Shown in pieces: positions 14,918 through 17,149 of a DNA stretch of 64,000 nt (its first letter is position 1; each line of letters opens with the position of its first letter). Both the position numbers and the translations under genes were made by a program. The notes beneath the pieces are model-generated. The model searched no databases. It was not told the origin of the DNA and saw nothing but the letters and a program-made list of their open reading frames with translations. The DNA lies in NCBI RefSeq assembly GCF_050920415.1, contig NZ_CP169309.1. One strand, written 5' to 3'. Source of the stretch: Escherichia coli (GTDB taxonomy: Bacteria > Pseudomonadota > Gammaproteobacteria > Enterobacterales > Enterobacteriaceae).

Positions 14918-16560
14918 GATAATTTCTCCAACATTTCTGAATTACTGGCGCCAGGCGGCACCAGCGGCCAGACGTTCTCAAGTTCGTCGATTGAGACATG
15001 AAGCAGGTATGGCCCATCACTGTTCAGCATGGTGTCGAGTGCCGCTTCAACCTGGTCTTTACGGGTGATGTGTTGGCCAGGGATGCCGAAGGCGCTGGCT
15101 AACATGAGGAAATCGGGATTATCGGTAAGGGTGGTTTCGCTATATCGTTCCTGGAAAAACAGTTGCTGCCATTGTCGAACCATCCCTAACCGTTGGTTAT
15201 CGAGTAAGACGATTTTCAACGGTAACTGCTTGCGTTTTACGGTGCCCAGCTCTTGCACATTCATCATGAAAGAGCCGTCACCGGAGATACAGACGACGGT
15301 ATCGTTCGGTCGCGCAACTTGCGCACCAACCGCTGCCGGTAAACCAAACCCCATGGTGCCTAATCCGCTTGAAGTGATGAAATTTTCCGGGCGAGTGTGG
15401 ACGATGTGCTGCGCGGCCCACATCTGGTGCTGCCCTACATCTGTGGTTACTACACAATCTTCAGGTTTACGATCCGACAGTTGTTTTAACAACAACGGCG
15501 CGTAGATAGCATCACCGGGATGGTCATAACGCCAGGCGTGTTCACTACGCATTTGTGCGCAGTGTTGCTGCCAGTCATTGATATTTAACGGCTGCTGTAA
15601 CGCAGGCAACAGCGTGTTTAAATCACCCTGTAATGCCACATGTGCCTGACGCAGCTTGTTCATTTCTGCCGGGTCAATATCCATATGGATAACACTGGCG
15701 TGTGGTGCGAAGGTGTTCAGTTTGCCAGTTACCCGGTCATCAAAACGTGCACCCACGGCGATCAACAAGTCACATTCCTGCACCGCAAAGTTCGCCGCTT
15801 TGGTGCCGTGCATCCCCAGCATGCCCAGATAGTACGGATAATCCGCATCAACTGCGCCAAGTCCTTTCAGCGTGCAGGTGGCAGGCATTTTTGTGGCAGA
15901 GAGAAATTCTCGTAATGCAGGAACTGCCTGCGCCATACCCACGCCACCGCCAACGTACAGCATCGGTTTTTGCGCTTTTGCCAACATCTGGCGCGCTTGC
16001 TCGACTTCGGCATGTGGGAAAGTCACTTCGTTTTCAACGGTGGTGAACCAGGGTTCCAGATCGCCGCTGGCTAACTGGATATCTTTTGGGATATCGACCA
16101 AAACCGGACCGGGACGACCTGAGCTGGCAACTTCGAATGCTTCAGCCATGATGCGCGGCAACTCTTCCATAGACTGTACGAGGAAGCTGTGTTTGGTACA
16201 GGCTAATGACAATCCCAGGACATCAACTTCCTGAAATGCGTCGGTGCCGATGAAGGGAGCGGACACCTGACCGGTGATGGCAACAACAGGGATGGAATCT
16301 AACAGTGCGTCCGCAAGCCCAGTTATCAGGTTGGTTGCGCCCGGACCAGATGTGGCGATACATACGCCAGTTTTGCCGGTAGCACGGGCATAACCGATAG
16401 CCGCCATTGCCGCGCCCTGCTCATGCCGGCACAGCAAGTGCTCCACGCCGCCGTCATACAATGCATCGTAAACCGGCATAATTGCGCCACCCGGATAACC
16501 GAAAACGGTATTCACACCTTGTGTCCGCAACGCATGTACCACCCACTGTGCGCCATTCAT
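14914..16560 (-). CDS. ilvG: Acetolactate synthase II large subunit, full-length (uninterrupted)
   Basis: Continuous 548-aa [80 protein letters not shown]... (TPP-enzyme family) with no frameshift. Confidence 0.93.
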
Positions 16561-16562
16561 AG

Positions 16563-16613
16563 TTAGTTCCCCGTCCTGAATCTTGAGAAACAGAATTTTG
16601 TGCTGTTATTCAT
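16563..16613 (-). CDS. ilvX: Small 16-aa ORF between ilvL attenuator and ilvG
   Basis: Reverse strand ATGAATAACAGCACAAAATTCTGTTTCTCAAGATTCAGGACGGGGAACTAA gives [16 protein letters not shown]; its stop is 2 nt before the ilvG ATG. Confidence 0.6.
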
Positions 16614-16642
16614 TGTCTGCTCCTCGGTTATGTTTTTAAGGT

Positions 16643-16678
16643 CAAAAAAAACCCCCGGACCTTTCGGTGCGGGGGTCT
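16643..16678 (-). terminator. ilvGMEDA attenuator terminator hairpin
   Basis: Minus strand reads ...CCCCCGCACCGAAAGGTCCGGGGG followed by TTTTTTTT (GC stem plus U-tract) immediately downstream of ilvL. Confidence 0.8.
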
Positions 16679-16699
16679 TAGTTCGTTAAGGCTTGATCT

Positions 16700-16798
16700 C
16701 TAAGCCTTTCCTCGTCCAAGTGCAGCCCCGCACGGTGGGATAATAATCACCACCACGCTAATCACGACCAGGCTAATCACTCGTAGAAGGGCTGTCAT
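16700..16798 (-). CDS. ilvL: ilv operon leader peptide (32 aa, Leu/Val/Ile-rich)
   Basis: Reverse strand translates to MTALLRVISLVVISVVVIIIPPCGAALGRGKA followed by a stop. Confidence 0.9.
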   Translation of the reverse strand: MTALLRVISLVVISVVVIIIPPCGAALGRGKA

Positions 16799-17149
16799 TT
16801 TGTCTTTTCTTGCATCTTGTTCGAAGGAATGCCTAAAGAGTTACCATAGATTTTGCGAATAGCACAAGATATTTTTTGGCCGATTTTTATGATGCCTTTA
16901 ATAATTTCAATAGAAATTGTTGTTTTTTAAAAAGAAAACAGTGAGTGAAAAAAATTCAATTTCAGTATGAATGTTGTTCCCTTCTTCGTAGTTAATCCTT
17001 TGTCCACTGCATTTTGCGAGCATCGTTCCACCGCCAGAACAACTCAACTTCACTTGCACAAATAAACAGGAATCAGCCACTAAAATTCACGAATTAGCGG
17101 GCTACAGCAGCGATATCTTATGTACATAATGGCGACTCAAGGAGGGCTT

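Follow-up and report, generated by a model that had tools for sequence, protein, structure and literature searches.

ilvX between the attenuator and ilvG in the Escherichia coli isoleucine/valine operon: comparative signs that its translation, rather than its peptide, is conserved

Introduction

What is selected in ilvX, the 16-codon open reading frame (ORF) that separates the attenuator from ilvG in the isoleucine/valine operon? The locus raising this question lies within a 64,000-nucleotide stretch of Escherichia coli DNA (contig NZ_CP169309.1, assembly GCF_050920415.1), hereafter the window. It is the known region that controls ilvLXGMEDA, the isoleucine/valine operon of E. coli, located on the minus strand, and all of its parts (ilvL, the attenuator, ilvX, and ilvG) are already known, each gene being annotated in RefSeq. 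The initial annotation of this DNA had described a compact leader in which these elements follow one another; every element was recovered in its place, and what that description left unstated was the minus strand.

Identity and context of the locus

The ilvL-attenuator-ilvX-ilvG match is far beyond chance, and the region was found in 5425 of the 5426 complete E. coli genomes. The genes are arranged in the order ilvL-X-G-M-E-D-A, all on one strand and with the leader upstream, as read from the annotation of a collinear strain together with the IlvG family match (NF006524, 1076 bits for a cut-off of 738). For a strain with locus DNA identical to that of the window, PGAP calls ilvL, ilvX, and ilvG at identical coordinates, with a 2-nt gap between ilvX and ilvG. 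Strain MFDS1022581 is nearly identical to the window, the only differences being in the rrn operon and beyond about 59.4 kb. Two features frame the locus:

14914..16560, minus strand: ilvG, acetolactate synthase II catalytic subunit, intact, 548 aa (NF006524 full-length match)
16580..16869, minus strand: extent of the match to Rfam RF02744 (Rev39_5p_UTR), running from the 5' UTR through ilvL and the attenuator into the beginning of ilvX

The RF02744 match scores 157.1 bits against a gathering threshold of 88 (E = 4e-49), and the folding z-score of the 281-nt leader relative to shuffled sequences is -3.6. The ilvG stop overlaps the ilvM start (ATGA). The window derives from a different strain than K-12: ilvG is intact here, whereas that of K-12 is reported to bear a frameshift (PMC9299463). 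The K-12 ilvLXGMEDA leader is the same locus, with an ilvX identical in nucleotides and peptide (NC_000913.3:3950507-3950557).

The ilvL leader peptide and the attenuator

Attenuation involves the following elements:

16798..16700, minus strand: ilvL, ORF of the 32-aa leader peptide MTALLRVISLVVISVVVIIIPPCGAALGRGKA, with its TAG stop at 16702..16700 (ORF list, PF08046, NF007744, PGAP)
16739..16789, minus strand: regulatory codon run, ilvL codons 4-20, LLRVISLVVISVVVIII (read from the translation)
16730..16758, minus strand: upstream 'protector' hairpin inside ilvL, GCGUGGUGG.GAU UAUU AUCCCACCGUGC (fold of -15.5 kcal/mol)
16726..16733, minus strand: antiterminator 5' strand, GUGCGGGG, ilvL codons 22-25 (perfect pairing with 16674..16667)
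16675..16652, minus strand: terminator hairpin CCCCCG-C-ACC GAAA GGT-C-CGGGGG (fold of -21.6 kcal/mol)
16651..16644, minus strand: U8 tract of the intrinsic terminator, exactly eight T/U (read directly)

The leader peptide had been described as rich in leucine, valine, and isoleucine, which is borne out by 15 such residues out of 32 (4 Leu, 6 Val, 5 Ile), the same figure that a review gives for the branched-chain residues of this peptide (PMC6123439). Both PF08046 (61.5 bits, cut-off 25) and the NF007744 equivalog (81.9 bits, cut-off 59) recognize it above their cut-offs. The GC-rich stem with its run of eight U, read as the attenuator from the outset, is indeed a stable hairpin directly followed by the U8 tract, and its pairs (9/9) are unvaried among 76 distinct sequences. 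A consensus terminator scan missed this attenuator because the stem carries a 1x1 internal mismatch; its sole match was a weak one on the plus strand of the same DNA.

RNA folding, suggested earlier as a means of finding alternative antiterminator structures, yielded one. An 8-bp duplex between 16733..16726 and 16674..16667 (-17.7 kcal/mol) forms when the transcript is cut before the terminator 3' arm, and it excludes the terminator, the 5' arm of which (16675..16666) holds the antiterminator 3' strand CCCCGCAC (16674..16667). In these folds, a ribosome mask at codons 20-26 abolishes the antiterminator, while stalls at codons 5-12 and 16-19 permit it. The protector hairpin has GUGC in common with the antiterminator strand, and its columns display no variation in the 76 distinct sequences. 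Equilibrium folding of the full-length leader with ribosome masks did not reproduce the kinetic choice of attenuation; as the terminator always forms in such folds, they are uninformative on this point.

These elements fit the scheme established for the operon. Transcription starts upstream of ilvL, and the 32-codon leader is translated. With an ample supply of charged Ile-, Leu-, and Val-tRNAs, the ribosome proceeds through codons 20-26 and covers GUGCGGGG (16733..16726), upon which the CCCCCGCACC...GGUCCGGGGG hairpin with the U8 tract forms and transcription stops. When any of the three tRNAs is scarce, the ribosome stalls within the run of codons 4-20, leaving GUGCGGGG to pair with CCCCGCAC of the terminator 5' arm, and RNA polymerase reads through. 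In K-12, read-through is reported to increase under Ile, Leu, or Val limitation (Lawther & Hatfield 1980, as cited in PMC9299463).

ilvX and its junction with ilvG

Downstream of the attenuator, the following features were located:

16613..16563, minus strand: ilvX, 16-codon ORF plus TAA (translation; PGAP 'peptide IlvX', WP_001387183.1)
16620..16625, minus strand: ilvX Shine-Dalgarno (SD) sequence GAGGAG, 6 nt upstream of the ATG (read directly)
16585..16604, minus strand: conserved ilvX core AGCAYAAAAUUCUGUUUCUC (nucleotide-level conservation)
16569..16572, minus strand: GGGG, SD-like element for ilvG, contained in ilvX codons 14-15 and separated by 8 nt from the ilvG ATG (unvaried in all aligned sequences)
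16562..16561, minus strand: CT, the 2-nt spacer that separates the ilvX TAA from the ilvG ATG (read directly)

The ilvX ATG begins at 16613 and the stop occupies 16565..16563, with the ilvG ATG at 16560..16558. The second, 16-aa ORF ending 2 nt before ilvG in the initial annotation is thus ilvX, according to its translation, the PGAP call, and its identity with K-12. That annotation had also raised the question of ribosome occupancy on ilvX and of translational fusions, which the literature already answers: a Ribo-seq table quantifies ilvX as a known small ORF (PMC10746267, supplement), and a translational GFP fusion of ilvX has been assayed (PMC9299463).

The tight spacing had further been taken to suggest translational coupling into ilvG. 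The pair displays the geometry of coupled genes, with a stop within a few nucleotides of the next start and a layout conserved across species; a weak or occluded downstream start, another feature expected of coupling, was not found. The SD:anti-SD duplex amounts to -8.1 kcal/mol for ilvX and -7.0 kcal/mol for ilvG in the window. Over 79 species, ilvX averages -8.0 kcal/mol, versus -5.9 kcal/mol for ilvG in the Enterobacteriaceae set, while the ilvG SD equals or exceeds that of ilvX in strength in Serratia, Yersinia, and Hafnia. The predicted energy for opening the ribosome-binding site (RBS) is 6.5 kcal/mol for ilvG versus 8.5 kcal/mol for ilvX, the latter being the costlier in 84% of species. 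As the ilvG RBS is predicted to be the easier to open, nothing indicates that it has to be unmasked by translation of ilvX, and the idea of an ilvG start occluded unless ilvX is translated is unsupported. The idea that lineages devoid of the ORF carry a stronger ilvG SD fared no better: no consistent pattern emerged, with values from -4.0 to -9.5 kcal/mol regardless of the ORF. Neither of these two computational tests for obligatory coupling was supportive, the unvaried GGGG that ilvG has for itself, at a suitable spacing, likewise speaks against an obligatory role, and no experimental test of ilvX-to-ilvG coupling was found in the literature. Papers on adaptive evolution and valine production report attenuator mutations or ilvXGMED cassettes, and none tests ilvX function. 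Judged from the sequence, translational coupling from ilvX to ilvG is plausible.

Conservation of ilvX across species

The comparison set comprised 77 Enterobacteriaceae species plus Dickeya, Serratia, Yersinia, and Hafnia, with 12 non-Enterobacteriaceae loci in all. Two contigs (L086 and L090), labelled as 72-73% relatives, were left out, as they are E. coli-like loci with a truncated ilvG.

The ORF is intact in all 77 Enterobacteriaceae species. It counts 16 codons, except in four species where it has 15 or 18, and the alignment from the ilvX start to the ilvG start contains no indel. The start is ATG in 63 and GTG in 13 of the 77 species, with hypervariable flanks, and the single sequence in which it was lost has an ATG at the next in-frame codon. 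A TAA or TGA stop occupies position -5 in 74/77 species; the other three have TCA there, and their ORF runs on for two codons to end at the TGA contained in the ATGA of ilvG (+1). Dickeya, Serratia, Yersinia, and Hafnia keep a 16-codon ORF and the junction, with the stop at -5 or -6 and strongly diverged peptides; across families, what diverges in the 3' half of the ORF is its sequence, not its length. In all Enterobacterales species examined, 2–3 nt separate the ilvX stop from the ilvG start, unless the two overlap. Further away, Vibrionaceae possess an analogous ORF of 17-19 codons, encoding an unrelated peptide and ending in the ATGA of ilvG, and two lineages without the ORF present a GGAGCAG...ATG motif directly before ilvG.

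The codons themselves do not evolve as those of a protein. Entropy over the three codon positions is 0.38/0.68/0.42 for ilvX, versus 0.11/0.02/0.83 for ilvG, so that position 2 is the most variable and the third-position excess is absent. Residues 2, 3, 5, 12, 13, 14, and 16 change freely and non-conservatively, and the unvaried residues fall either on nucleotides that are unvaried even at synonymous sites, or on the ilvG SD (GGG, Gly15). A partial motif, x-K-[FS]-C...G-[NK], is kept across families; outside the unvaried positions, the peptides of Serratia, Yersinia, Hafnia, and Dickeya have little in common with that of E. coli. No premature stop was seen in 66 distinct sequences, where about 2.3 would be expected for independent columns, a difference that is not significant. 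Taken at the level of sequence, this pattern suggests that what is kept is the act of translation (start, length, and stop position) and not the peptide, and it favours a cis-acting translated ORF, involved in coupling or anti-polarity, over a functional peptide.

Nucleotide-level conservation in the ilvX core

Part of the conservation of ilvX could be explained by an RNA- or DNA-level element rather than by translation. Synonymous changes occupy 2/380 cells in the ilvX core, versus 72/380 in comparable ilvG codons. The minimum free energy (MFE) fold contains a possible hairpin between ilvX positions 16594..16585 and the SD region (16625..16616), GAGGAGCAGA pairing with UCUGUUUCUC at -11.4 kcal/mol, a value equalled by 2.7% of shuffles. 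Across 76 sequences, 97% of the cells are paired, with one-sided changes only: the covariation test on these sequences returned no double compensatory change, no shuffle support, and no significance. With shifts in register, the hairpin appears in the MFE folds of E. coli, Serratia, Yersinia, and Hafnia, and outside the Enterobacteriaceae its stability does not exceed that of shuffled sequence. It is also weak, owing to a 21-nt loop and three G-U pairs. Given these compensatory-change, shuffle, and stability results, the hairpin is not considered as established. A candidate Lrp site inside ilvX was likewise set aside: it has two mismatches to the Lrp consensus, and the window contains 90 such matches in total for 75 +/- 11 expected, which is the chance level.

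Alternative explanations

IlvX could be a trans-acting small protein with its own target, its adjacency to ilvG only ensuring co-expression within the operon. The 'peptide IlvX' annotation, the listing of ilvX as a published small-peptide gene (Hemm 2008/2010, as cited in PMC9299463), and the partial motif retained across families all point that way, but the explanation appears quite improbable when confronted with the highly variable second codon position, the non-conservative replacements at seven residues, the coincidence of the unvaried residues with synonymous-invariant nucleotides or the ilvG SD, and the divergent peptides of the four other genera. Moreover, 16 residues without a hydrophobic segment offer scant basis for a fold.

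The opposite explanation holds the ORF to be incidental and places a conserved RNA or DNA element (a GAGGAG-sequestering hairpin, an sRNA/Hfq site, or a site bound by a protein) between the attenuator and ilvG. The scarcity of synonymous changes in the core and the near-complete pairing at the SD speak for it, as does the lack of significance of the premature-stop count alone. GcvB-ilvX chimeras have also been reported by RIL-seq (PMC9299463), although expression of ilvX::gfp was unaltered by GcvB in the same source. Nevertheless, this explanation is judged unlikely. The start is restricted to ATG or GTG amid hypervariable flanks and is restored in frame after its loss, the stop alternates between TAA and TGA or falls back on the ATGA overlap, and the 3' half diverges without changing length. 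The hairpin lacks double compensatory changes and shuffle support and is of ordinary stability outside the Enterobacteriaceae, and the Lrp match is at chance level. A further explanation makes ilvX translation mainly a second checkpoint, the SD hairpin tying translation of ilvX, and hence of ilvG, to a signal (temperature, an sRNA, or a protein, for example). The cost of opening the ilvX RBS and the recurrence of the hairpin in MFE folds of four genera agree with it, but this explanation appears very improbable: the covariation is not significant, the hairpin is weak, no cue of this kind is known, and ilvG possesses an SD of its own.

Proposed role of ilvX

The reading judged probable is that of a regulatory leader with attenuation, in which ilvX translation, not the peptide, is selected and most likely serves ilvG by reinitiation and/or ribosome cover. 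On read-through RNA, ribosomes would load at the strong ilvX SD (GAGGAG), located 30 nt downstream of the U-tract, and, once the 16 codons are translated, would stop 2 nt short of the ilvG AUG, over the weaker GGGG SD of ilvG. The start, length, and stop position of ilvX would then be what selection maintains, and the IlvX peptide would not be the selected product. Termination-reinitiation would most likely hand the ribosomes over to ilvG, and/or ilvX translation would maintain a ribosome cover over the RNA beyond the attenuator; independent initiation at ilvG is probably possible as well.

A more detailed version is advanced tentatively, somewhat short of probable: ilvX may be, instead of an ordinary protein gene, a conserved cis-acting 'relay' ORF, under selection only for its start, its length of about 16 codons, and its stop at the ilvG AUG in at least four Enterobacterales families, with a strong post-attenuator SD passing ribosomes to ilvG. 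Its start region (GGAGCAG...ATG) may be a displaced ancestral ilvG ribosome-binding site; this motif directly precedes ilvG in two lineages without the ORF.

The locus itself matters little, being a re-identified textbook regulatory region. The added value is modest and comparative, in that a database 'peptide', IlvX, evolves like a translated spacer. If confirmed, this would reclassify one E. coli 'small protein' as a cis-regulatory upstream ORF and place an extra step, at the level of translation, after attenuation and before the first Ile/Val pathway enzyme, with relevance to strain engineering using ilvXGMED cassettes (e.g., PMC13392391).

Comparison with known systems

The ilv leader resembles the trpL, hisL, leuL, thrL, and ivbL attenuators, which likewise have a short ORF rich in regulatory codons, an antiterminator and a terminator hairpin that exclude each other, and a U-tract. 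It differs from them in being multivalent (Ile, Leu, and Val). In the ilv operon, a further short ORF, itself translated, precedes the gene of the first enzyme. RF02744, a family from soft rot Enterobacteriaceae that is named by its discovery label and not by its function, matches here at full length, with a consensus structure covering the terminator and a hairpin across the ilvX start; it ends inside ilvX, leaving the ilvX-ilvG junction unmodelled. For this junction, the closest likeness is found in the same operon: ilvD-ilvA also features a G-run in the last upstream codons, a TAA, a 2-nt spacer, and an ATG, and its translational coupling has been shown experimentally (Harms 1988, as cited in PMC11383693). 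The upstream partner is, however, a full-length enzyme gene in ilvD-ilvA, whereas ilvX is a 16-codon ORF for which coupling is inferred only.

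Layout and identity of the leader region

Read on the minus strand (16520..17000), the leader region contains every feature described in the initial annotation, which had named no strand.

Features of the ilv leader region (all minus strand)
16798..16700: ilvL, 32 codons, product MTALLRVISLVVISVVVIIIPPCGAALGRGKA (ORF reading)
16675..16652: GC-rich attenuator hairpin, CCCCCG-C-ACC GAAA GGT-C-CGGGGG (sequence reading)
16651..16644: U8 tract (sequence reading)
16625..16620: strong ilvX Shine-Dalgarno (SD) sequence GAGGAG, 6 nt 5' of the ATG (sequence reading)
16613: ilvX start ATG, opening a 16-codon ORF (translation)
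16565..16563: ilvX stop TAA (sequence reading)
16560: ilvG ATG, opening a 548-aa ORF after a 2-base CT spacer (sequence reading)

The leader peptide is indeed rich in Leu, Val, and Ile (15 of its 32 residues), the hairpin is followed by exactly eight U as had been described, and the second 16-aa ORF, with its stop 2 nt before the ilvG ATG, is ilvX. The attenuator escaped a simple terminator scan owing to a 1x1 mismatch in its stem; the sole match was weak and lay on the opposite (plus) strand of the same DNA. Elsewhere in the operon, the ilvD-ilvA junction (11785..11792, minus strand) reads TAA-NN-ATG, with a 2-nt gap and a G-run ahead, as at ilvX-ilvG; ilvG and ilvM overlap by ATGA (14914..14917, minus strand), and gaps of 19 and 64 nt separate ilvM-ilvE and ilvE-ilvD, respectively.

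The window is from E. coli: 701 nt spanning the leader, used as query, matched 5425 of 5426 complete genomes of the species, with 100% identity in strain MFDS1022581. The PGAP annotation of that strain, which maps one-to-one onto the window coordinates, lists ilvL, 'peptide IlvX' (ending 2 nt from ilvG), and ilvG. Both records have the same sequence, save in the rrn operon (differences at 22-25 kb) and beyond ~59.4 kb, where an indel begins inside the long polar fimbriae operon lpfA-D (O113 type; ~56402..61383, plus strand), itself inserted between glmS and pstS. Family models agree with the gene assignments for ilvL (PF08046, 61.5 bits, cut-off 25; NF007744, 81.9 bits, cut-off 59) and, over its full length, IlvG (NF006524, 1076 bits, cut-off 738). 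The Rfam model RF02744 ('Rev39_5p_UTR', soft rot Enterobacteriaceae) scores 157 bits (gathering score 88) over 16580..16869 (minus strand); what it effectively describes is the ilv leader, from ilvL through the attenuator into the beginning of ilvX, a content that its discovery-label name hides. The ilvX DNA does not differ from that of K-12 (NC_000913.3:3950507-3950557), and a 121-nt ilvX segment is found with at least 99% identity in 4963 of 5425 E. coli genomes. The ilvG gene (14914..16560, minus strand) is intact, with 548 aa and a full-length family match; that of E. coli K-12 is frameshifted. The initial identification is thus confirmed as correct, and was already known in every part.

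A Ribo-seq study lists ilvX as a 'previously known sORF' (PMC10746267, supplement). GcvB did not repress a translational GFP fusion to ilvX, although RIL-seq detected chimeras between the two RNAs (PMC9299463); Term-seq gave the expected 3' end 5' of ilvX, ascribed to the Lawther & Hatfield attenuator; and mutations from adaptive evolution at 42 °C, labelled 'ilvL/ilvX intergenic +47/-39', map to the attenuator (PMC4166923).

Folding of the attenuator

The 281-nt leader folds better than 200 of 200 shuffles (z = -3.6). At equilibrium, the terminator (-21.6 kcal/mol) forms under every ribosome mask, which is expected when a kinetic switch is folded at equilibrium. Folding the transcript as it stands before synthesis of the terminator 3' arm yielded the alternative antiterminator for which the initial annotation had proposed RNA folding: an 8-nt pairing in which the terminator 5' arm CCCCGCAC (16674..16667) is perfectly paired with GUGCGGGG (16733..16726, ilvL codons 22-25; duplex -17.7 kcal/mol). 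It is retained with a ribosome mask at codons 5-12 or 16-19, and lost at codons 20-26. A further hairpin lies upstream (16758..16730, -15.5 kcal/mol) and has GUGC in common with the antiterminator strand. As modelled, these alternative structures fit the classical attenuation scheme, with its presumed dependence on tRNA charging. Among 76 distinct Enterobacteriaceae sequences, no terminator pair varies and hardly any ilvL column does, and covariation is therefore uninformative for the attenuator.

Conservation of ilvX

Of the new results, the most useful is that ilvX appears, from comparative sequence data, to evolve as a translated spacer, unlike a peptide gene. One genome per species was scanned, giving 80 Enterobacteriaceae loci; in 77 of them the upstream sequence was long enough to assess the ORF, which is intact in every case. 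Its start codon is ATG in 63 species, GTG in a further 13, and in the remaining locus (L068:2470-2535, from a metagenome-assembled genome) the ATG is lost but the next in-frame codon is itself ATG. In 74 species, a TAA or TGA at -5 closes the ORF. Three loci (L013, L054, and L065) carry TCA there, which adds two codons and gives an 18-codon ORF ending at the TGA of the ilvG ATGA. Indels occur between terminator and SD, and none from the ilvX start to the ilvG start. The peptide sequence, in contrast to the ORF, is not maintained: mean column entropy per codon position is 0.38/0.68/0.42 in ilvX vs 0.11/0.02/0.83 in the first 39 ilvG codons, and residues 2, 3, 5, 12, 13, 14, and 16 vary freely. 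The lack of premature stops (0 observed, 2.3 expected) is not significant alone; the argument for selection on ilvX translation rests on start, stop, and length.

Nucleotide conservation within ilvX is only partly explained. The core AGCAYAAAAUUCUGUUUCUC is conserved even at synonymous sites (synonymous changes in 2/380 cells, vs 72/380 for comparable ilvG codons). In the minimum free energy fold, the SD region (16625..16616) forms a hairpin with 16594..16585, and 97% of cells are pairing-compatible; substitutions in this hairpin affect only one side of a pair, double compensatory changes are absent, and shuffles lend it no support. The register is shifted in Serratia, Yersinia, and Hafnia, where UCCU(G) is the partner of the SD and the pairing energy does not surpass that of shuffled sequences. 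An inverted-repeat-like CAGAATTTTGTGCTG (16591..16605) matches an Lrp consensus with two mismatches; matches of this kind are no more frequent in the window than chance would give.

Short ORFs before ilvG outside Enterobacteriaceae (lineage; ORF; stop)
Dickeya-like contig; MSSSIKSCFPQIESGK, 16 codons; TAA 2 nt before ilvG ATG
Serratia; MNNRAKSCNYRSKAGK, 16 codons; TAA 2 nt before ilvG ATG
Yersinia; MHNRIKSCASRKRSGK, 16 codons; TAA 2 nt before ilvG ATG
Hafnia; MTDRIKSCCPSKRAGN, 16 codons; TAA 3 nt before ilvG ATG
Aliivibrio, Vibrio toranzoniae (L089:1150-1203, L091:1144-1203); 17-19 codons, unrelated peptides, between ilv attenuator and ilvG; TGA inside ilvG ATGA

The Vibrionaceae ORF starts are preceded by GGGAGCAC...ATG. 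Aeromonas and two gammaproteobacterial contigs (L087, L092, L093, upstream of 1201) have a leader peptide and terminator without the short ORF. In L092 and L093, GGAGCAG lies directly 5' of the ilvG ATG, and the same motif lies 5' of ilvX in E. coli; speculatively, this placement suggests that an ancestral ilvG ribosome-binding site (RBS) may have been displaced to become the ilvX start.

Other features of the window

Between rep and ppiC sits a gene (6803..7252, plus strand) whose annotation is PemK/MazF-family type II toxin, with no adjoining antitoxin annotated in the matching strain. In E. coli, the chromosomal origin oriC lies in the mioC-mnmG intergenic gap (41106..41483); the window therefore takes in the region of the origin as well as the rrn operon (20087..25310) and the atp operon.

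Possible translational coupling of ilvX and ilvG

Coupling of ilvX translation into ilvG, suggested initially from their tight spacing, is a reasonable reading and consistent with the comparative data, and our literature search found no test of it. The stop/start geometry is conserved across the Enterobacterales species compared, and in Enterobacteriaceae the SD is stronger on ilvX than on ilvG (-8.0 vs -5.9 kcal/mol), which favours coupling. Obligatory coupling is opposed by the predicted cost of RBS opening, cheaper for ilvG than for ilvX (6.5 vs 8.5 kcal/mol), by the invariant GGGG that ilvG retains at good spacing, and by an ilvG SD strength unrelated, across lineages, to ORF presence. The only coupling that the search found described for the ilv operon is that of ilvD-ilvA (Harms 1988, as cited in a later paper). 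This same-operon precedent also favours coupling at ilvX-ilvG: ilvD-ilvA reads ...GGGGGGTTAA-TG-ATG, and ilvX-ilvG ...ACGGGGAACTAA-CT-ATG.
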